A stretch of 40,816 nucleotides of DNA from the IMG/VR virus record IMGVR_UViG_2563366884_000001, positions 1 through 40,816 of that record. The stretch is one strand, 5' to 3'. Under the pieces are notes generated by a model. The model saw nothing but the letters and a program-made list of their open reading frames with translations. It ran no database searches and had not been told where the DNA came from. A program made the translations under genes and the position numbers. Shown in pieces: positions 1,331-39,010 of the stretch; positions within the stretch are counted from its first letter, which is position 1, and every line of letters begins with the position of its first letter. The DNA is from a virus (lineage: Duplodnaviria; Heunggongvirae; Uroviricota; Caudoviricetes).

Positions 1331-1345
1331 GCTTTTTTATACTAA
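1331..1345. repeat. attL: attL core GCTTTTTTATACTAA, followed by lambda P' arm with Int arm-type sites (1346..~1420)
   Basis: Exact lambda att core; downstream sequence GTTGGCATTATAAAAAAGCATTGCTTATCAATTTGTTGCAACGAACAGGTCACTATCAGTCAAAATAAAATCATTATTTGATTTC matches the lambda P' arm as I recall it. Confidence 0.9.
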
Positions 1346-2800: not shown

Positions 2801-3145
2801 TTAGTCCTTGCGTAGCTCGCTGATTCTTCTGTAAGTCTCTGGTGCTTTGTTTCCGTGTATCTTCATTTCAGACTTCAACAGAGCAACGAGGGAATCCCAT
2901 TCGTTGAGGATTCCTTTGAATGCTGGAACGCGCTTTGCAACCTTGTTGAATGAATCTCTGATTTCTGGAATCTGCTCAACAAGTGCAACGCATCGTCTGA
3001 AATCGGCTGCGTCATGGGGAGCGCCGAAGTGATGACCATAGATATTCTTTTTCAGTCCACATGCGATTGAGGCAAGAGTTGCGCTACTGATGCCAACATC
3101 GCCAGTCGATTGCCATTTCAAAACCTTCATAGCCAAATCTGACAT
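2801..3145 (-). CDS. Hypothetical protein (ea-region accessory gene)
   Basis: 114-aa ORF with GGAGA Shine-Dalgarno 6 nt upstream; no family recognised. Confidence 0.5.
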   Translation of the reverse strand: MSDLAMKVLKWQSTGDVGISSATLASIACGLKKNIYGHHFGAPHDAADFRRCVALVEQIPEIRDSFNKVAKRVPAFKGILNEWDSLVALLKSEMKIHGNKAPETYRRISELRKD

Positions 3146-3157
3146 TTCTTGTCTCCA

Positions 3158-3181
3158 ATAAAAAAACCGCCATCAGGCGGC
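3158..3181 (-). terminator. Putative rho-independent terminator (minus strand)
   Basis: Hairpin CCGCC-ATCA-GGCGG followed on the minus strand by a 6-7 T run. Confidence 0.45.
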
Positions 3182-3246
3182 TTGGTGTTCTTTCAGTTCT
3201 TCAATTCGAATATTGGTTACATTGTTTTCATATATGAATAAATAAA

Positions 3247-4381: not shown

Positions 4382-4807
4382 TCACTCTCCTTTGATGCGA
4401 ATGCCAGCGGCGCGTGGCACATTAACTTCCACGATGCGCACAGTTGGTTTGTACATCTCAATCGCTGTCAGCCAGTCAGCGCCAGTCATGCGCTTTTCTG
4501 CATCGCCATTAGTCCACTTAACCGGTACACCAATAGCCTTCATCGCGATTTCTATTTCCCCGGCAATGGCGCTTTTTCCGCAACCAGTAAAACCAGAAAC
4601 AACGACAAGAACTTCGCCTTTGGCTGGTTTTATTTCCCGTGCTTCCAGTTCTGCAATACGCTTTTTGTCTGCTTCCCGTTCATCCAGTAGTGCCAGCACA
4701 ATCGATGGTGTTACCAGCTCATGGAAAAGGTCCGCGTCAAATCCCCAGTCGTCATGCATTGCCTGATCTGCCGCTTCACGCAGTGCCTGGTAATTAATTT
4801 CGCTCAC
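4382..4807 (-). CDS. Ea22-like protein (141 aa) with Walker-A-like motif GFTGCGKS
   Basis: N-terminus MSEINYQALREAADQAMHDDWGFDADLFHEL and C-terminus ...GIRIKGE resemble lambda Ea22 as I recall it; GTG start with GGAGG SD. Confidence 0.5.
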   Translation of the reverse strand: MSEINYQALREAADQAMHDDWGFDADLFHELVTPSIVLALLDEREADKKRIAELEAREIKPAKGEVLVVVSGFTGCGKSAIAGEIEIAMKAIGVPVKWTNGDAEKRMTGADWLTAIEMYKPTVRIVEVNVPRAAGIRIKGE

Positions 4808-5048
4808 TGGTTGCCTCCTGTTTTTCTGCCTTCAACACCATGCGAGAACCATCATCCAGCTCCCACGCGATCTCACCACCTTCAGCCATGACCAGTCGCC
4901 ACACCAATTGAGCAGCCTCATTGGTAACATCACGACCTGGATCATTGCCAACGCGCATACGTCCACCTTCAACATCGCGCATTTTTGCCAGCATGATAGT
5001 TTTTGATAGCGGTGAAAAACCAAGCTGTAGTCGTGCTGAATTACTCAC
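4794..5048 (-). CDS. Hypothetical protein (84 aa)
   Basis: ORF with GTG start preceded by AGGAGGCAACC; stop overlaps the next gene start. Confidence 0.4.
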   Translation of the reverse strand: MSNSARLQLGFSPLSKTIMLAKMRDVEGGRMRVGNDPGRDVTNEAAQLVWRLVMAEGGEIAWELDDGSRMVLKAEKQEATSERN

Positions 5049-5563
5049 TGGTTGCCTCCTTTGCGAAGCTGGGCGGCGAACTCGTTAAGTGATATGTAGC
5101 AATCTCCAAATGTTAACGAACCGCTCGACTGCATATGCTCCATAGCCATCTCCACGCCCTGCGCCCGTACTTCAGCCAGGAAAGAGTCGGTGGCTGGGGT
5201 TTCGATATCGTTAATTTCAGGAAGAATCTCTTCCCATGTGGCGATATCGCCATTCAAATGCCATCCGGCAATTCCACTGGAGTTATCCGCAACACTCCGA
5301 ACGGCTTCAATAGCTTCATGCATTGCCGCATTCTCCGCCGCCAGCGCCGAAAACTTCTCGTGTGCCAACTTAACAGCTGCATCAGCCTGCTTAATTGACT
5401 CAATCGCTTTCTGGTGGTCTTCGGACAGAGCCGAAATCTTGGCCTCCGCTTCAGCAAATTTACGCACCAGATATTCAGCGTTTGTTTCGTTAACCTTTAA
5501 ATCTCGTGGGATGCATTTACCTTTCAGAAAACCATCCATCTCAATTAGTGACATTTGTTTCAT
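5045..5563 (-). CDS. Hypothetical protein (~172 aa; alternative GTG start at 5581)
   Basis: ORF track 5045..5581; the ATG at 5563 overlaps the stop of an upstream small ORF (ATGA), suggesting translational coupling. Confidence 0.45.
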
Positions 5564-5724
5564 TTCTTCCCACTCCGCCACATCGCATTCAGATATTTGT
5601 TTTGATTCACTGATGGAAACGAGTTTTGCTTAAGTAATTCCTCTCTCGATGGCATTGGCTTTACGCGTTGGCGAATAATCATTTCTGCCGGAAGAATGCC
5701 GGGATTGTATGCAAGTCCTCTCAT
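5560..5724 (-). CDS. Possible small protein (54 aa), translationally coupled on both sides
   Basis: ATG at 5724 overlaps the stop of the 93-aa gene (ATGA) and its own stop overlaps the next ATG; below the ORF-track size cut-off. Confidence 0.3.
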
Positions 5725-6002
5725 GATTTACTCTCAACGAACTGGTCAATAGCCATGCTAAGTGACACACCTAAAGTCTCGATATGCTGCTGAATATCCT
5801 GTAGCGTCTGCGCCTGAGATAACAGGATTTCACGGTTGCATAACTCTTTAACCAGATGCTCAAACTTGCTGTAATAACCGATACGACTTAGTGTTTCTTT
5901 CCCTGCATTCTCGCCTTCTTTGATAATTCCTCTTTCGCTAAGAATCAGATCGTGTTTGGTTCCGGTGATAACGTATTTGCCGAGGTCGATGTTTAGCTTC
6001 AT
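5721..6002 (-). CDS. Hypothetical protein (93 aa)
   Basis: ORF in the leftward early operon; no family recognised. Confidence 0.45.
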
Positions 6003-6018
6003 TGTTAATTATTCCATG

Positions 6019-6333
6019 TTAATTTATTCGTATGCCTGCTCTTTCTTCATCGAGTTTTTTTAGCTTGTATCGCATAGCCCTTACTGAATAAATTGAGCGG
6101 CAGGTTGCAATTGCTATTTCTTCTGCGGAGAACTTACCGAAAAGTGATACTTCTGCTCTTGTCCAGCGTCTTCCACGAAGTCGGCTAACAATGTCAGCGC
6201 CAATCCTTGTTGCTTTCGCCATAACTGCTTTTTCAGTCCTTTCCAGTTTTTCAGCAATAACTTCAACTGGCATTGTCGCCGATACTTCGCGCAAGAAATC
6301 GACTTCCCATTTCTCCCATGGAGTCTTTTTCAT
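6019..6333 (-). CDS. Hypothetical protein (104 aa), basic, possibly nucleic-acid binding
   Basis: ORF in the leftward early operon; Arg/Lys-rich. Confidence 0.45.
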   Translation of the reverse strand: MKKTPWEKWEVDFLREVSATMPVEVIAEKLERTEKAVMAKATRIGADIVSRLRGRRWTRAEVSLFGKFSAEEIAIATCRSIYSVRAMRYKLKKLDEERAGIRIN

Positions 6334-6344
6334 AGGCGATACCG

Positions 6345-6827
6345 TTATTTGATAAGAAGTGAAGGTTTCCCAACCTTGAGTTGAGCACCGGGAATATTTA
6401 TTCCTGCTTTTAGTTGGTGCTTGATTGCCAGTTTGTCGGCTTTAATTGTCGTTTCAAACTCAACGTATTCAGGAGGAAGGGCGCTTGAGTCGATTATTTC
6501 TACAATTTCTGACGGTTTGCGGATTGTTACCTGGTGAATACCTGCTCGAATATTTTTCTTGCCAACCATTTCAAGCGATGACGCTATATATGATTTGATG
6601 CTGTCAATCTTATTTTGAATTACTGCGGCTCGCTCATTCAGTGACTTTGCCTCTTCCTTGAGGCGTTCGGCATAACCAGATTCATTTTTAATGACGGAAA
6701 GAAGTTGTTCTATTTTATCGGTAAATTCTCCTTCCATGCCTTCTATTGTGTCAGCAATCATCTCTGGTTCTAAATCTGAATCCATCAATTTTGCGTATTC
6801 ATTGGCAATTTCATATAGTTTGCTCAC
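6345..6827 (-). CDS. Siphovirus Gp157-like protein (recombination-module associated)
   Basis: Translation resembles the Gp157 family; lies directly downstream of recT; start taken at GTG 6827 with GGAGG SD rather than TTG 6833. Confidence 0.55.
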   Translation of the reverse strand: MSKLYEIANEYAKLMDSDLEPEMIADTIEGMEGEFTDKIEQLLSVIKNESGYAERLKEEAKSLNERAAVIQNKIDSIKSYIASSLEMVGKKNIRAGIHQVTIRKPSEIVEIIDSSALPPEYVEFETTIKADKLAIKHQLKAGINIPGAQLKVGKPSLLIK

Positions 6828-7722
6828 TGGCAACCTCCAGTTTCGCTTTGCATTCTATGTAAATGGCTTGTACGTTCTGCTGCAATTTCATTCCAGATGT
6901 CAGGCGATATGCTTCTGCAAAATATCTCTTCAAATCATCCATGTTTTCAGCCTGAGCCATTTCATCACAAAGAAGTTGTGCTTTTTCCGTTATTTCCTGC
7001 TGGCGTTTCCGTTCATCTTCGCGGATATCTTCCTCTGATTTATGCGGCATAACTGGTTCAGTCCACACACCTTCTTCTTCGTTTAGTACGTGAATAGCAC
7101 TATCAAGACGTGATGCCTTAGGCCAATACTTGCTTGCACGCTTTACGACCGTCTTTCGCGCCATCTCATTCCAGTGATTTACCCATGGTCCTTTATCGCT
7201 GAATGCTGCCTTGCTTGTTTTCCTTACAGCCTCAATTTCAGCCAGACTCATCTCTTCCGTTAGATAATCACCTGCTGGCGTCTTAACTGTGCAGTAAACG
7301 CCAACGATATCACCACGATCACCGAAGGCGTTGTATTTATGGGTTGGTGCTTTATCAAGCCCGTTTGACTCATAGGTATCGTTAGCATGAACAAGTTTTG
7401 CCTGACCCCATGAGATAACACCAGACTCCATTGCAATATGGAGCAATCCCATATAGCTGATATCAAGGCAAACCATGCCATCGCGCGGAACCAGATAAGC
7501 CAGTTTGCTTGCAGGGTTTAAGGTGATGCCGATCGCCGCAACATTGATGATGGCGTTCTGTGCGCTGGTTGGATTTGCCAGTGCTGTTTTAGCCAGGTAA
7601 TCATTTTTCTGGAAATACTGAATTGCAAACTGGCTTTCCTTAGCCCATGTCACCGTCTGTTCAGTCAATGCTCCGCAGAATAACTGCTCCTGCTGTTTAA
7701 CGAATTCAACGATATTGCTCAT
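6811..7722 (-). CDS. recT: RecT-family single-strand annealing recombinase (303 aa)
   Basis: RecT-like motifs including KTVVKRASKYWPK; GGAGAAG SD; position in the early-left recombination module. Confidence 0.8.
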   Translation of the reverse strand: MSNIVEFVKQQEQLFCGALTEQTVTWAKESQFAIQYFQKNDYLAKTALANPTSAQNAIINVAAIGITLNPASKLAYLVPRDGMVCLDISYMGLLHIAMESGVISWGQAKLVHANDTYESNGLDKAPTHKYNAFGDRGDIVGVYCTVKTPAGDYLTEEMSLAEIEAVRKTSKAAFSDKGPWVNHWNEMARKTVVKRASKYWPKASRLDSAIHVLNEEEGVWTEPVMPHKSEEDIREDERKRQQEITEKAQLLCDEMAQAENMDDLKRYFAEAYRLTSGMKLQQNVQAIYIECKAKLEVASEQTI

Positions 7723-8030
7723 GCTGCTTCTCCATAAATGTGTCTGCGTTTGAATATTGCGAAGGCATATTCAGCCTTAACTCTTTCGGTTATTGCATCC
7801 CAGAACCATTCAGCGGCTTTTTCCTGATAGTTACAATCATCATCTTCCAGCCAGTCGATAGCGTCCTTAGTGTGTTCATCTGGTTTATATGAGCGAAGCA
7901 TTTCGCTTATTGGGTCGCAACGTTTGCAGAGGCGAACAACTTCACTGTTGATTCGCTCGTAATCTTCATCAGTAAAACTTGCGATTATTTGCGATATTTC
8001 ACGCTTATCATTCAGAGTCAGAATCATCAT
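7719..8030 (-). CDS. Hypothetical protein (103 aa) upstream of recT
   Basis: ORF with AGGAGA SD; stop overlaps recT start (ATGA). Confidence 0.45.
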   Translation of the reverse strand: MMILTLNDKREISQIIASFTDEDYERINSEVVRLCKRCDPISEMLRSYKPDEHTKDAIDWLEDDDCNYQEKAAEWFWDAITERVKAEYAFAIFKRRHIYGEAA

Positions 8031-8111
8031 CTTTCTCCTGTTCTTTGTGCTGATTGAGCATTTTGTTCATCTGACGAATGAATTCTTCGTCTGACCAGTT
8101 ATCTGTAAAAC

Positions 8112-8264
8112 TCATTTCCTGCGATACCACGGAAGGTTGATAGCTGATTTCATCGCTTTATTTGCTTCAAGCCACATTTTTGAATCACCAATAAATCTGG
8201 CTATTACTGCTTTGTTCTGTGCAGCACGAAGCATCTGGTGATTAATGGCTATTTCATTGCGCAT
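8112..8264 (-). CDS. kil: Putative Kil-like small protein (50 aa)
   Basis: Lies immediately downstream of cIII as in lambda; segment IARFIGDSKMW resembles my recollection of lambda Kil; below the ORF-track size cut-off. Confidence 0.35.
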   Translation of the reverse strand: MRNEIAINHQMLRAAQNKAVIARFIGDSKMWLEANKAMKSAINLPWYRRK

Positions 8265-8374
8265 AATAAGACCTCAACTCTTTTCCATCCGTCACGTAAT
8301 TTACTGGTGATTCGTTCAAGTAAAGATTCGGAAGGGCAGCCAGCAACAGGCCACCCTGCAATGGCATATTGCAT
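8249..8374 (-). CDS. cIII: CIII-like protein (FtsH inhibitor / CII stabiliser), 41 aa with divergent C-terminus
   Basis: MQYAIAGWPVAGCPSESLLERITSKLRDGWKR matches lambda CIII residues 1-32; AAGGAG SD upstream of this Met inside the longer annotated ORF. Confidence 0.8.
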   Translation of the reverse strand: MQYAIAGWPVAGCPSESLLERITSKLRDGWKRVEVLLCAMK

Positions 8375-8433: not shown

Positions 8434-8461
8434 ATATAAAAAGGCCCTCACACTGGAGGGC
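8434..8461 (-). terminator. Putative rho-independent terminator (tL-like) between the 207-aa gene and cIII
   Basis: Hairpin GCCCTC-N6-GAGGGC followed on the minus strand by CTTTTTAT. Confidence 0.45.
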
Positions 8462-8577: not shown

Positions 8578-8605
8578 GCCAAAAATAAAGGCCGACTATG
8601 CGGCC
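8578..8605 (-). terminator. Putative rho-independent terminator overlapping the stop of the 207-aa gene
   Basis: Hairpin GGCCG-N6-CGGCC followed on the minus strand by TTTATTTTT. Confidence 0.5.
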
Positions 8606-9219
8606 TCGGAAGGAAGTCCAATCATCTTATTCAAATCTTCTACCCGTAAAGCAGGAAGTGCTGTACTTGCTTTATCTGCTTCTTTTGGTAGCAATTCTTT
8701 GCTTTCAGGCCAAACTTCAATAAGTCGCTTAACTGTTGTGACTGAGTTCAAAGCAGCCCATACATTTGATTCGATATCCTTTTTCTTGGCTTCAAGTTTT
8801 TGTTGCAATGCGCAGATTTCATCAAACCTTTTTGTTATTTCGTGTTCTGCGCTAAACATGCATTTATCTTTGGTCGGAGTAGGGAGCAATATATCTTCGC
8901 CGTTGCCGTCTTTCCCATATGAATGCCATCCAACCCTTCTGCCAGATACAGTCAGATAAATTGAAGTAGAACTAACATCGTATGAGTAAAATGAACATCC
9001 CATCTTTTCAAGTTCTTCACTTATAGCTACCAACTTGGATGATAACTGATCCACTTCCTCAGTTTTCTTTTTACCGCCAAACGCAATAACTCTGGCGTCA
9101 AGTGCAAGCTGGTTCTTTAACTTTGTTACTTCTTCAAGTTCAGTGAAAACCCCAGACTTAATTAAAGCGTTACGAGCGATTTCCTCTTTCATTCTCGTAG
9201 TTAAGCGGATTGATGACAT
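8596..9219 (-). CDS. Hypothetical protein (207 aa) between N and cIII
   Basis: GAGG SD before Met at 9219; no family recognised; occupies the lambda ral/sieB/ssb locus position. Confidence 0.5.
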   Translation of the reverse strand: MSSIRLTTRMKEEIARNALIKSGVFTELEEVTKLKNQLALDARVIAFGGKKKTEEVDQLSSKLVAISEELEKMGCSFYSYDVSSTSIYLTVSGRRVGWHSYGKDGNGEDILLPTPTKDKCMFSAEHEITKRFDEICALQQKLEAKKKDIESNVWAALNSVTTVKRLIEVWPESKELLPKEADKASTALPALRVEDLNKMIGLPSEAA

Positions 9220-9230
9220 ATTAATTCCTC

Positions 9231-9530
9231 TCAAATAAGTGGTTTGCTGCCTAATTTTATTTTCTGGCGACCAACACAAGTCACACCCATTTCACTGCGT
9301 GGCTTGCGGTAGTAAATACGGTTCTGTTTATGCTCGACTTCTTCTGCTTTCTTACAGCGAAGGCTTCCGAGTGATGCTGCTTTATCTGCTCTGACGCAAC
9401 CAGAGAGCTTTAGCGCAATTTTTCGCGCCAGTCGCTGCTCTTGCATTGCCTGTTCACGTTGAGCCTGTCTGCGTGCTCTGCGGCGATTTCTGGCGTTATC
9501 GTCAGCCAGATATGTAATGACTACTGTCAT
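9231..9530 (-). CDS. N: N-like transcription antiterminator (99 aa)
   Basis: Arg-rich N-terminus (DNARNRRRARRQAQREQ); C-terminus GVTCVGRQKIKLGSKPLI resembles lambda N C-terminus GITCSGRQKIKGKSIPLI; GGAGGT SD; first gene downstream of PL/nutL. Confidence 0.8.
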   Translation of the reverse strand: MTVVITYLADDNARNRRRARRQAQREQAMQEQRLARKIALKLSGCVRADKAASLGSLRCKKAEEVEHKQNRIYYRKPRSEMGVTCVGRQKIKLGSKPLI

Positions 9531-38995: not shown

Positions 38996-39010
38996 GCTTT
39001 TTTATACTAA
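38996..39010. repeat. attR: attR core GCTTTTTTATACTAA, preceded by a lambda-like P arm (~38850..38995)
   Basis: Second exact copy of the 15-bp core; the upstream P arm contains Int arm-type sites (AGGTCACTAA, CATAGTGACTGG). Confidence 0.9.

Follow-up and report, generated by a model that had tools for sequence, protein, structure and literature searches.

The early-left region of this prophage raises two questions: whether a short sequence recurring at several of its gene boundaries marks places where genes are exchanged by recombination, and how a RecT-type annealing protein comes to be encoded there without an exonuclease partner. The window, by which we mean the whole stretch of 40,816 nucleotides analysed, contains a complete P22-like prophage whose ends are lambda-type att cores (GCTTTTTTATACTAA at 1331..1345 and 38996..39010), and the annotation of relatives places its insertion between ybhC and ybhB. 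The region considered here is the pL (early-left) operon of this lambdoid E. coli prophage integrated at the lambda attachment site. We regard it as likely that three features are joined in this region, namely a coupled operon, a linker serving as a patch for gene exchange, and a nuclease-free Rec module of the HK140 type; the linker and the module are both instances of already known kinds.

Organization of the early-left operon

All genes between 4382 and 8367 are carried by the minus strand (Table 1), and consecutive genes from cIII through the DUF551 gene are spaced by -23 to +16 nt. Each predicted early-left ribosome-binding site is located inside the gene before it, the usual layout for translational coupling. 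The four ATGA overlaps listed in the first-pass annotation (5560-63, 5721-24, 7719-22 and 8112-15) are all present, and its description of a tightly packed series of small genes holds. From 8404 to 3183 the minus strand shows no terminator-like site; the hairpin following the one upstream of cIII appears on that strand only at the far end of this interval, and the gene chain is therefore devoid of internal terminator-like sites. The 35-aa ORF, whose first 21 residues are 76% identical to HK97 p32, occupies the place held in P22 by arf, between kil and the annealing gene.

Table 1. Features of the early-left region, in order of transcription (window coordinates).
Feature	Coordinates	Strand	Remarks
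Terminator-like hairpin	8444..8461	-	upstream of cIII
cIII-like gene	8254..8367	-	heads the coupled chain; translation and PGAP name in relative L001 (99.7% identical)
kil	8112..8264	-	head of the chain; translation and PGAP name in L001 (99.7% identical)
orf35, 35-aa ORF	8008..8115	-	between kil and orf103; PHROG 17766/2123
orf103, 103 aa	7719..8030	-	function unassigned; PHROG 3486; 5' flank of the Rec core
RecT-family single-strand annealing protein, 303 aa	6811..7722	-	Pfam PF03837, 2.9e-32
RecT/Gp157 junction	6823..6838	-	GGAGGTTGCCAGTGAG; 13/16 bases like the linker
Siphovirus Gp157 family protein, 160 aa	6345..6827	-	GTG 6827; Pfam PF05565, 2.4e-37
orf104, 104 aa	6019..6333	-	PHROG 11492/323; 3' flank of the Rec core
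DUF5405 gene, 93 aa	5721..6002	-	Pfam PF17399
DUF2737 gene, 54 aa	5560..5724	-	Pfam PF10930, 2.1e-30; ATGA overlap at each end
172-aa gene	5045..5563	-	ATG 5563; PHROGs 614, 368, 492
Linker copy A	5044..5065	-	core GGAGGCAACCAGTGAG 5044..5059; cgcaaa prefix extends to 5065
DUF7446 gene, 84 aa	4794..5048	-	Pfam PF24233, 1.3e-18
Linker copy B	4803..4819	-	GTG 4807..4805, start of the Ea22-like gene
Ead/Ea22-like gene, 141 aa	4382..4807	-	Pfam PF13935, 1.1e-12
Next terminator-like hairpin	3164..3183	-	

A recurrent junction sequence combining ribosome-binding site and start codon

The sequence GGAGGCAACCAGTGAG is found exactly at 4803..4818 and 5044..5059 on the minus strand; both copies of the junction motif reported in the first-pass annotation are thus real, but the positions given (4801..4816 and 5045..5060) were off by 1-2 nt. 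The third, imperfect copy differs by three mismatches and starts at 6823 instead of the earlier 6824. At up to three mismatches the window contains five matches to the linker where 0.26 are expected, and none of 100 shuffled sequences gave five. The GTG of each of the three minus-strand copies opens the ORF that follows: DUF7446 starts at 5048, the Ea22-like gene at 4807 and Gp157 at 6827, the last of these in agreement with the 160-aa length of homologues in databases.

In copy A the SD GGAGG is followed, across the 6-nt spacer CAACCA, by a GTG start (5048..5046); the 172-aa gene ends on a TGA (5047..5045) overlapping this start. The description of the junction as SD, upstream stop and GTG applies to this copy but not to the other two: the DUF7446 ORF crosses copy B in another frame (..QEATSERN*) to end at TAA 4794..4796, 7 nt beyond the motif, and RecT ends at 6811..6813, 10 nt past 6823..6838. 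The full form of the linker, (A)AAGGAGGCAACCAGTGAG, would act as a portable stop-start adaptor of the Escherichia/Shigella/Salmonella lambdoid gene pool, providing a strong SD separated by a 6-nt spacer from a GTG start; an upstream gene entering in one frame would terminate on the TGA overlapping the GTG (tail ..KGGNQ*), and one entering in a second frame (..EATSE..) would terminate at most 10 nt further.

The linker joins many unrelated gene pairs

In a scan of IMG/VR the linker was found in at least 120 loci, joining at least 17 upstream and at least 14 downstream protein clusters in at least 28 combinations, and it is also carried by HK97. The motif is therefore not unique to this phage and lies between many unrelated gene pairs. 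Among the matches listed, a GTG opens an ORF in 133/133 occurrences, the upstream stop falls within the motif in 94 and 4-10 nt beyond it in 34, and the commonest context, in which an Ea22-like C-terminus precedes an Ea22-like N-terminus, accounts for 57. Arrays are short (at most three copies per locus), and matches to the linker/Ea22 island, present in 410 phage records, begin either with the edge of the linker or with the GTG.

A sample independent of the motif was obtained by anchoring on RecT, relatives of which occur in 418 viral contigs (tblastn, E ≤ 1e-3); the best 80 of these 418, with RecT 99-100% identical, were retained. A copy of the linker family is present in 61 of the 70 informative loci, and 35 of the 75 copies in this sample are exact; the flanking sequences fall into 12 groups upstream and 8 downstream. 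The RecT/Gp157 junction behaves differently, and had been taken in the first-pass annotation for a variant of the same motif: apart from about 9 unrelated chance hits, its approximately 190 occurrences invariably connect RecT to Gp157, a constancy by which it is ruled out as a reused linker. This sequence could fold as ACTGG-AGGTTG-CCAGT. No homology break falls on this junction in the 80 RecT-anchored loci, a result that is little informative since RecT itself is 99-100% identical there.

Mosaic breakpoints coincide with the linker

The upstream edge of the linker is the most variable homology breakpoint of the region: positions 4815-4819 show the largest number of distinct flanks, with 18 flanks in 32 of the 80 RecT-anchored loci. 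At the other copy, homology to relatives breaks off at 5065 in 13 loci and at 5041-5045 in 11. The DUF7446 gene together with one linker copy forms a 241-bp cassette between the two linker copies, a spacing found in 22 loci; one relative (L190) is an exact empty site lacking precisely this cassette, and in another (L133) the cassette stands behind DUF2737 instead. What follows the 3' end of DUF2737 in relatives is either the 172-aa gene or the linker itself, behind which at least eight different genes are found. By these comparisons the linker is a reused sequence and a recurrent mosaic joint. The DUF5405 gene, precisely missing in 37 of the 80 RecT-anchored relatives (joint 5999|5725), is a dispensable cassette.

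The 172-aa protein is a mosaic, with a coiled coil and a C-terminus of the Ea22-like family, part of its tail being encoded by the linker, and joints occur inside its gene at 5450, 5438, 5326 and 5147-5158. The 141-aa protein begins with the lambda-Ea22-like N-terminus MSEINYQALREAA.. and carries a Walker-A-like GFTGCGKS in its C-terminal part. It shares this N-terminal segment with lambda Ea22 and the Ead/Ea22 family, in which the N-terminus and coiled coil are common and the C-terminal domains variable (PMC10834534). A 61-bp island (4759..4819) spanning the start of its gene is conserved in about 30 relatives with 76-93% identity.

The linker as a possible patch of homology

Genes with nothing else in common are separated by one and the same stretch of 17-22 nt, and the linker would therefore constitute a patch of homology, extended to about 60 bp where the downstream gene is of the Ea22 type. 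Phage single-strand annealing proteins or host RecA could use this patch to swap whole genes, or to add or remove them, and such exchanges would leave reading frames and coupling intact. Phage annealing proteins can use short or diverged homology, the minimal efficient pairing segment being 23-27 bp for Red-beta and 31-34 bp for RecA (PMC3945230). We infer from these comparisons that recombination took place within the linker. The earlier proposal of module exchange at a conserved linker is thus borne out insofar as mosaic breakpoints coincide with the motif, but the copy at 6823..6838 drops out and the mechanism is deduced from comparison.

It is rather unlikely that common descent alone produced this pattern, with tandem Ea22-like duplicates having kept their 5' and 3' ends, the other joints having arisen by illegitimate recombination and selection (Hendrix model), and the linker being no preferred site. 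The exact shared core of 16-22 bp is at or below the published pairing minimum, so that exchange in the core alone should be rare, and the prevalence of Ea22-like to Ea22-like pairs among the matches listed means that recurrence may partly reflect the common descent of paralogues. The linker is also no more conserved than the adjoining Ea22 N-terminal codons (76-93% identity), and exact gene-boundary joints free of the linker exist in the same operon, as in the gain and loss of DUF5405 and in SEN22, where the Rec core was swapped with the ATGA and the orf104 ATG as joints and without a shared linker. However, random joints would not time and again leave the same 16-19 nt, with a spacer that has no function, between sequences as unrelated as those of the motif-independent sample (at least 12 upstream and at least 8 downstream); L190 differs by exactly one cassette and one linker copy, as expected from exchange between repeats; and point variants of the linker are seen in all combinations with the same flanks. 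It is still less likely that the motif serves as an RNA or DNA element in its own right, recognized for example by a translational repressor, a small RNA or a nuclease, with its position at joints a side effect. The preservation of CAACCA and of the unusual GTG in 35 of 75 motif-independent copies, although a role is evident only for the SD and the start codon, would fit such an element, as would a strong 7-8 nt SD combined with a weak start codon, which suggests tuned translation. Against it, there is no inverted repeat or conserved flanking structure at the linker, both flanks vary, single-base spacer variants are common, and a search for the sequence string in the searchable literature returned nothing. 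The linker is, moreover, one of several alternative leaders in the Ea22 family, whose genes use at least three unrelated ones besides, lambda ea22 matching it at only 10 of 16 bases.

Exchange at the linker, the reading we favor, has precedents in the 'boundary sequences' or linkers of lambdoid phages, which belong to the modular-exchange model of Susskind and Botstein and of which seven were described by Clark et al. 2001 in the HK620 genome. As summarised in PMC3233612, those sequences resemble ours in being short, conserved between unrelated neighbours, located at gene or module boundaries and coincident with mosaic breakpoints, and they were proposed as foci of homologous recombination. 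The present linker differs in its location, within the 'ea' part of the early-left operon, and in being itself a ribosome-binding site with a stop/start overlap. Integron cassettes with attC are similar in that gene-sized units lie between short repeated sites, are precisely present or absent and occur in varied contexts. In contrast to attC, the linker has neither an imperfect palindrome nor a dedicated site-specific recombinase, comes in arrays of only 1-3 sites and doubles as a translation start; exchange is presumably homologous.

RecT belongs to a nuclease-free module

The RecT assignment is supported by TIGR00616 (82 bits, cutoff 52.65) and by the PDB structure of RecT (7UB2, E 0.0046). 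Scans of all early-left ORFs with Pfam, NCBIfam and PHROG detected no Exo/RecE-type nuclease, no nuclease or SSB family was found in the early-left region, and tblastn searches of the whole window with lambda Exo and the SEN22 RecE-type protein yielded no match below E 0.4. The first-pass annotation was therefore right that no such exonuclease is recognisable in the window, and with it in the complete prophage. It had also singled out the 103-aa and 172-aa proteins for possible nuclease folds: the AF2 model of orf103, a member of a small family of proteins of about 100 aa, contains helices only (pLDDT 74) and matches nothing significantly in the PDB, and the 172-aa protein has no Pfam, NCBIfam or PDB nuclease match.

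The absence of a partner nuclease is real but no anomaly: modules of this type, HK140 or 'P22 functional', have been published. The HK140 Rec module combines RecT with a MuGam-type protein (Gp157) and is nuclease-free, a nuclease being missing from 84 of the 246 lambdoid Rec modules surveyed (Zheng et al. 2025, PMC12315714). Over 5450..8115 the window and HK140 share 97.3% DNA identity, and viable isolated phages possess the same module (HK140, mEpX1, Kapi1 and Gally). Gp157 falls in PHROG 253, labelled 'Mu Gam-like end protection', and matches MuGam weakly by hhalign (E 0.02), its fold having no match in the PDB; it is probably a MuGam-type DNA-end protection or anti-RecBCD partner of RecT. 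The prophage contains no Chi site, an absence typical of phages with an anti-RecBCD function (PMC12315714, Table 1). The partner of RecT is thus most likely an end-protection or anti-RecBCD protein rather than a nuclease. Judging from the published classification, the module would comprise an annealing protein and an anti-RecBCD/end-protection protein of the MuGam type, with neither nuclease nor SSB; host enzymes would then carry out resection, or single-stranded DNA at replication forks would serve as the substrate of RecT.

That one of the neighbours Gp157, orf103, orf35 or orf104 is a cryptic exonuclease seems highly improbable. The block orf35-orf103-recT-gp157-orf104 (5999..8115) is invariant in 80/80 RecT-anchored loci, the Gp157 model has the order alpha-beta-beta-beta-alpha-beta, and its weak BFVD matches (E 0.014 to 1.4) are labelled PD-(D/E)XK or exonuclease, all of which could accommodate such an activity. 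The invariant residues of Gp157, however, lack a D..(D/E)XK triad and the protein has no PDB nuclease match; orf103 is predicted to be all-helical, and a 95% identical copy precedes a RecE-type gene in SEN22, so it does not substitute for one; orf104 resembles HTH proteins and, weakly, Mu gp9 (a 'D5-like regulator'; BLASTP E 8e-5), and is 90% identical to SEN22_30; and the AlphaFold 3-based survey assigns HK140 no nuclease (PMC12315714).

Compared with Rac RecE/RecT and lambda Exo/Beta, the annealing gene likewise lies in the pL operon, with kil/cIII on one side and the ea genes on the other, and, as for Rac recE/recT, it overlaps the gene before it in an ATGA-type arrangement, the 3' end of orf103 also holding the RecT ribosome-binding site. 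The difference is that the gene upstream of RecT encodes a predicted helical protein of 103 aa instead of a nuclease, no Exo/RecE homologue having been found in the prophage. P22 Erf-Abc1-Abc2-Arf is also a nuclease-free lambdoid Rec module relying on a modulator of host nuclease, but here the annealing protein is of the RecT type rather than Erf and the modulator is the MuGam-like Gp157 rather than Abc2 (tblastn with Abc2 was negative). From the HK140 module ('P22' functional class) there is no difference of substance, SAP-4 (RecT-type) and MuGam-type proteins being present and nuclease, SSB and Chi absent in both (PMC12315714), and the present module is another copy of it. It is to be noted that the flanking orf35, orf103 and orf104, which PMC12315714 does not discuss, are here as conserved as the core.

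Organization of the prophage and its early-left operon

The window contains a complete 37.7-kb prophage inserted between ybhC and ybhB and bounded by lambda-type att cores (GCTTTTTTATACTAA, 1331..1345 and 38996..39010). Its Int and Xis are lambda-like, and in relatives that are 99% identical the virion genes are of P22 type (tailspike, gp10, portal and ejection proteins). All genes of the pL (early-left) operon lie on the (-) strand; beyond the Ea22-like gene follow a DUF551 gene, more small genes and then xis and int. The Nmad5 gene stands at the position held in lambda by ral/sieB/ea10.

Features of the early-left operon in order of transcription
Feature	Position	Strand	Remark
N-like gene	9231..9530	(-)	first in the transcription order listed
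Nmad5 gene	8596..9219	(-)	207 aa; Pfam 'nucleotide modification associated domain 5', 1.2e-71; between N-like gene and cIII
Terminator-like hairpin	8444..8461	(-)	between Nmad5 and cIII-like genes
cIII-like gene	8254..8367	(-)	
kil	8112..8264	(-)	
orf35	8008..8115	(-)	35-aa protein; between kil and orf103
orf103	7719..8030	(-)	103-aa protein
recT	6811..7722	(-)	
gp157	6345..6827	(-)	
orf104	6019..6333	(-)	104-aa protein
DUF5405 gene	5721..6002	(-)	
DUF2737 gene	5560..5724	(-)	
172-aa gene	5045..5563	(-)	
DUF7446 gene	4794..5048	(-)	
Ea22-like gene	4382..4807	(-)	141-aa protein

From cIII to the DUF551 gene the intergenic spacing ranges from -23 to +16 nt. The four ATGA stop/start overlaps reported in the first-pass annotation are all present (5560-63, 5721-24, 7719-22 and 8112-15); a GTGA overlap is found at 5045-48 and overlaps of 11-23 nt elsewhere. 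Short gaps or overlaps, with the ribosome-binding site inside the preceding gene, are the layout of a translationally coupled operon, and no terminator-like site was detected on the (-) strand from 8404 to 3183. Judged by this layout, the early-left region is an ordinary phage operon with probable tight coupling between its genes.

A junction sequence shared by many gene boundaries

Two gene boundaries share the 16-nt sequence GGAGGCAACCAGTGAG, hereafter the linker, which occurs exactly at 5044..5059 (copy A) and 4803..4818 (copy B), 1-2 nt from the positions first assigned to it. When up to 3 mismatches to GGAGGCAACCAGTGAG were allowed, 5 matches were found in the window against 0.26 expected, and no shuffled sequence gave 5. 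The description of the motif as a combined Shine-Dalgarno sequence, stop and GTG start applies strictly to 5044..5059 only, whereas at 4803..4818 and 6823..6838 a different frame of the upstream gene runs across the motif, with the stop codon 7-10 nt beyond it.

An IMG/VR scan with the exact 16-mer, which defines a sample chosen by the motif itself, yielded at least 120 loci and 133 occurrences among the matches listed. Nearly all of these matches are enterobacterial lambdoid contigs, and about three look like unrelated chance matches. The GTG opens an ORF beginning MS.. in 133 of the 133 occurrences listed; the upstream ORF stops on the TGA overlapping this GTG, with the tail ..KGGNQ before the stop, in 94 of them, and in 34 it uses a second frame (..EATSE..) with its stop 4-10 nt further downstream. 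By clustering, the linker neighbours among the matches listed comprise at least 17 upstream and at least 14 downstream protein families in at least 28 combinations. The commonest pairing in this set has an Ea22-like C-terminus upstream and an Ea22-like N-terminus downstream; others include DUF2737, DUF7446 and about a dozen more genes.

Because this sample had been selected by the motif, a second, motif-independent sample was built from 80 loci anchored on RecT (the best 80 of 418 contigs, RecT 99-100% identical). A copy of the linker family lies downstream of RecT in 61 of the 70 informative loci. The linker is exact in 35 of the 75 copies, the remainder differing by 1-2 bases, and the copies separate 12 upstream from 8 downstream sequence groups. 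An identical DUF2737 3' end is joined in these loci either to the 172-aa gene or to the linker plus at least 8 different genes, and in front of Ea22-type N-termini stands either the linker or one of at least 3 unrelated leaders. The linker is absent from lambda, where ea22 has a different leader, and present in HK97 after gp37. A linker/Ea22 island was found in 410 records of sequenced phages, with alignments starting at the 5' edge of the linker or exactly at the GTG. Searched for in related phages, the motif is not unique to this phage and stands between unrelated neighbours on both sides. A 19-mer scan of GTDB species representatives gave 2 Escherichia matches and 6 in unrelated metagenome-assembled genomes against about 4 expected by chance, and this set is therefore uninformative on host range. 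The linker sequence string was not found in the searchable literature.

The RecT/Gp157 junction does not carry a linker copy

A look-alike of the linker, GGAGGTTGCCAGTGAG (13 of 16 positions, 6823..6838), had been taken for a variant copy. We rejected it as a third copy of the linker, as the viral-contig scan shows it in the RecT-to-Gp157 context only, bar about 9 chance matches in unrelated contigs among some 190 occurrences in the loci examined; the same RecT 3' end is always upstream and the same Gp157 start always downstream. No homology break was observed at this junction in the RecT-anchored loci, in which RecT is 99-100% identical. From its constant context, GGAGGTTGCCAGTGAG is to be read as a fixed intragenic ribosome-binding site whose resemblance to the linker is by chance. 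The segment 6826..6841 can fold as ACTGG-AGGTTG-CCAGT, in which case a small hairpin would contain the Gp157 Shine-Dalgarno sequence; pairing of this kind is absent from the true linker.

Homology breaks at the linker delimit gene-sized units

Breakpoints were mapped by blastn of the window against the RecT-anchored loci, and homology was found to end at a few discrete positions. The largest number of distinct non-homologous flanks, 18 in 32 loci, meets the window at the upstream edge of copy B (4815-4819), and breaks at copy A fall at 5065 in 13 loci and at 5041-5045 in 11. The clearest single piece of evidence on linker breakpoints comes from the alignment of two relatives' loci. L190 is identical to the window up to the 3' end of the 172-aa gene, one copy of the linker included, and then runs straight into the Ea22-like N-terminus, so that it lacks exactly a 241-bp unit made of DUF7446 and one linker (an empty site in the alignment); L133 carries this 241-bp unit behind DUF2737. 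The 241-bp linker spacing recurs in 22 loci, and linker arrays never exceed 3 copies.

The DUF5405 gene is precisely absent from 37 of the 80 RecT-anchored relatives. The joint connects 5999 to 5725, the DUF2737 start codon replacing that of DUF5405.

RecT in a module devoid of exonuclease

RecT passes the profiles of its family (PF03837, 112.3 bits for a cutoff of 24; TIGR00616, 82.4 bits for a cutoff of 52.65) and matches the RecT structure PDB 7UB2 over residues 34-207 with a weak yet specific E-value of 0.0046. On profile grounds, its assignment as a RecT-family single-strand annealing protein is secure. The first-pass annotation had also stated that no exonuclease partner could be recognised, and family profile scans indeed detected no nuclease family in any early-left ORF. 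Searches of the whole prophage by tblastn with lambda Exo and SEN22 RecE gave best E-values of 0.46 and 0.86, and those with lambda Gam, Abc2 and Mu Gam gave nothing in any prophage frame. The adjacent 5'-3' exonuclease of lambda Exo/YqaJ or RecE type that defines the two-component RecET/Red systems was not found.

The 103-aa and 172-aa proteins had been singled out as possible cryptic nucleases. In Rac, recE occupies the position of orf103, which likewise overlaps recT by ATGA. The orf103 product is all-helical in its AF2 model (pLDDT 74), for which the PDB gave no significant neighbour. Its family is small, with about 47 cluster representatives, all of about 100 aa; UvsY matches at E 3-9 were dismissed as noise. 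The 172-aa protein belongs with Ea22-like PHROG families and has no match among PDB sequences. In Salmonella phage SEN22 (locus L309, 2503..4515), a RecE-type exonuclease VIII and a 189-aa protein are encoded between orf103 (95% aa identity) and orf104 (90%). The exonuclease and the 189-aa protein replace RecT and Gp157, with joints exactly at the ATGA overlap (window 7719) and at the orf104 ATG (6333), and no shared linker lies at these swap joints. Since orf103 and orf104 also flank the RecE-type nuclease of SEN22, they are conserved flanks rather than nuclease stand-ins.

One relative, L163, carries a 1.95-kb insertion next to recT that was considered as a nuclease gene and rejected. It is an IS21-family element (L163 6014..7963; IstA 340 aa, IstB 260 aa) that interrupts the orf103 homologue in its 3' end, just upstream of recT, with about 11 bp of target duplicated (window 7750..7760).

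The same arrangement has been described in a survey of 325 lambdoid phages (Zheng, Casjens, Davidson, Amundsen and Smith, Genome Res 2025, PMC12315714). In that survey HK140 combines a RecT-type annealing protein (SAP-4) with a MuGam-type anti-RecBCD protein, nuclease and SSB being absent; the nuclease is missing from 84 of 246 Rec modules, with P22 as the classical example, and few or no Chi sites are typical of the phages with an anti-RecBCD function (PMC12315714). Over 5450..8115 the window shares 97.3% identity with HK140. As in HK140 and the 'P22 functional type' so described, the annealing protein is present, nuclease and SSB are absent, and the module is nearly identical to its prototype. 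The low Chi content of the HK140 type is also found, with no Chi octamer between the att cores on either strand, the sole copy in the window (39392) lying in host DNA. The same module is carried by the viable phages HK140, mEpX1, Kapi1 and Gally and is therefore no decayed remnant. We conclude that the missing exonuclease is real and that this module type is known and common, with a published architecture. Annotators should not mark RecT beside Gp157 as a recombinase system that is incomplete.

Possible relationship of Gp157 to Mu Gam

Gp157 adjoins RecT and is assigned to PHROG 253, labelled 'Mu Gam-like end protection'. Gp157 and Mu Gam are alike in architecture, each with a long helix at the N-terminus and a C-terminal domain rich in beta structure, and hhalign places Gp157 residues 93-155 colinear with Mu Gam 95-161 (E 0.037 against Mu Gam alone and 0.022 against a Mu Gam alignment, from shallow alignments with Neff of about 1.7). 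Foldseek of the Gp157 model against PDB gave nothing below E 0.6 and a profile search of PDB sequences nothing relevant. Next to gp157, orf104 encodes a protein with weak homology to Mu gp9 (BLASTP E 8e-5), whose gene adjoins gam in phage Mu (L306 1483..2326), and from this gene order the pairing of a Gam-like with a gp9-like gene seems to recur. Taken independently of the PHROG label, these comparisons weakly suggest a MuGam-like Gp157. The missing nuclease might instead be Gp157 itself, as a Foldseek search of BFVD with the Gp157 model (m1d5e80f2a943) returned, after Gp157 relatives, weak matches (E 0.014-1.4) to phage proteins labelled PD-(D/E)XK endonuclease-like, exonuclease or RecB-like. 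We nevertheless regard a cryptic nuclease as highly improbable because the invariant residues of Gp157 include no nuclease catalytic triad.

Proposed linker-mediated exchange and mosaic formation

The proposal of module exchange at a conserved linker holds in that the comparative data fit a reused linker with mosaic breaks, but not for the variant copy. The pattern fits whole genes having been exchanged, gained or lost at this linker, a recombination step that we infer from the breakpoints. As the linker supplies a strong Shine-Dalgarno sequence and a start codon, along with stop codons serving two upstream reading frames, exchange within it would keep expression. The published minimal pairing length of Red-beta is 23-27 bp and that of RecA 31-34 bp (PMC3945230), and the exact linker core of 16-22 bp is at or below these values. 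When an Ea22-type gene is downstream, the common patch extends to about 61 bp at 76-93% identity, a range in which diverged DNA is recombined by the annealing proteins of phages (PMC2327257, PMC3945230). Conserved boundary sequences acting as recombination foci in lambdoid phages are an established idea, as set out where PMC3233612 summarises Clark et al. 2001.

It could further be supposed that the linker, rather than a passive by-product, is a selected cassette-exchange site through which annealing proteins run the 'ea' region of lambdoid phages as a small system of gene cassettes; we consider this unlikely. A frame-tolerant stop-start adaptor would then let any small accessory gene be inserted, swapped or lost, RecT, Erf or Beta would work with some 20 bp of identity, and translational coupling would automatically secure expression of the inserted gene. 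An integron-like system was rejected, there being no palindromic attC-type site and no dedicated site-specific recombinase; the linker contains no inverted repeat and, in contrast to integrons with their dedicated recombinase, the window's only site-specific recombinase genes are the lambda-type int/xis acting at att.

Two models of phage mosaicism have long competed: in one, homologous exchange takes place at conserved short linkers, and in the other, illegitimate joining is random and selection acts afterwards. Both kinds of joint occur within 4 kb in this operon: linker-type joints in dozens of gene combinations, and bare gene-boundary joints in the SEN22 swap of the RecT/Gp157 core for a RecE-type core and in the gain or loss of DUF5405. 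The linker and the nuclease-free module are fresh instances of already known kinds, and current understanding is unchanged by these findings. The operon offers a compact natural test bed for linker-mediated versus illegitimate mosaic formation, in which exchange at the linker of about 20 bp could be compared with RecT present and absent. For annotation, genes that follow the linker should be taken to begin at its GTG.

Additional features of the operon

The 141-aa Ea22-like protein joins a lambda-Ea22 N-terminal segment to a C-terminal part with a Walker-A-like GFTGCGKS and shows weak PDB matches to the NTPases Cdc6 and FtsY (E 0.04-0.3); searches of PDB sequences with the 141-aa and 172-aa proteins gave nothing useful. 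A 65-bp island (3156..3220) is conserved in most relatives despite differing flanks and contains a strong terminator-like hairpin with a T-run at 3183..3164 (-), just upstream of a 114-aa ORF (2801..3145). The first 21 residues of orf35 are 76% identical to HK97 p32 (PHROG 2123, labelled 'recombinase'). This gene occupies the place of arf in P22, and in the database protein P0023 orf35 is fused to the C-terminal half of orf103.
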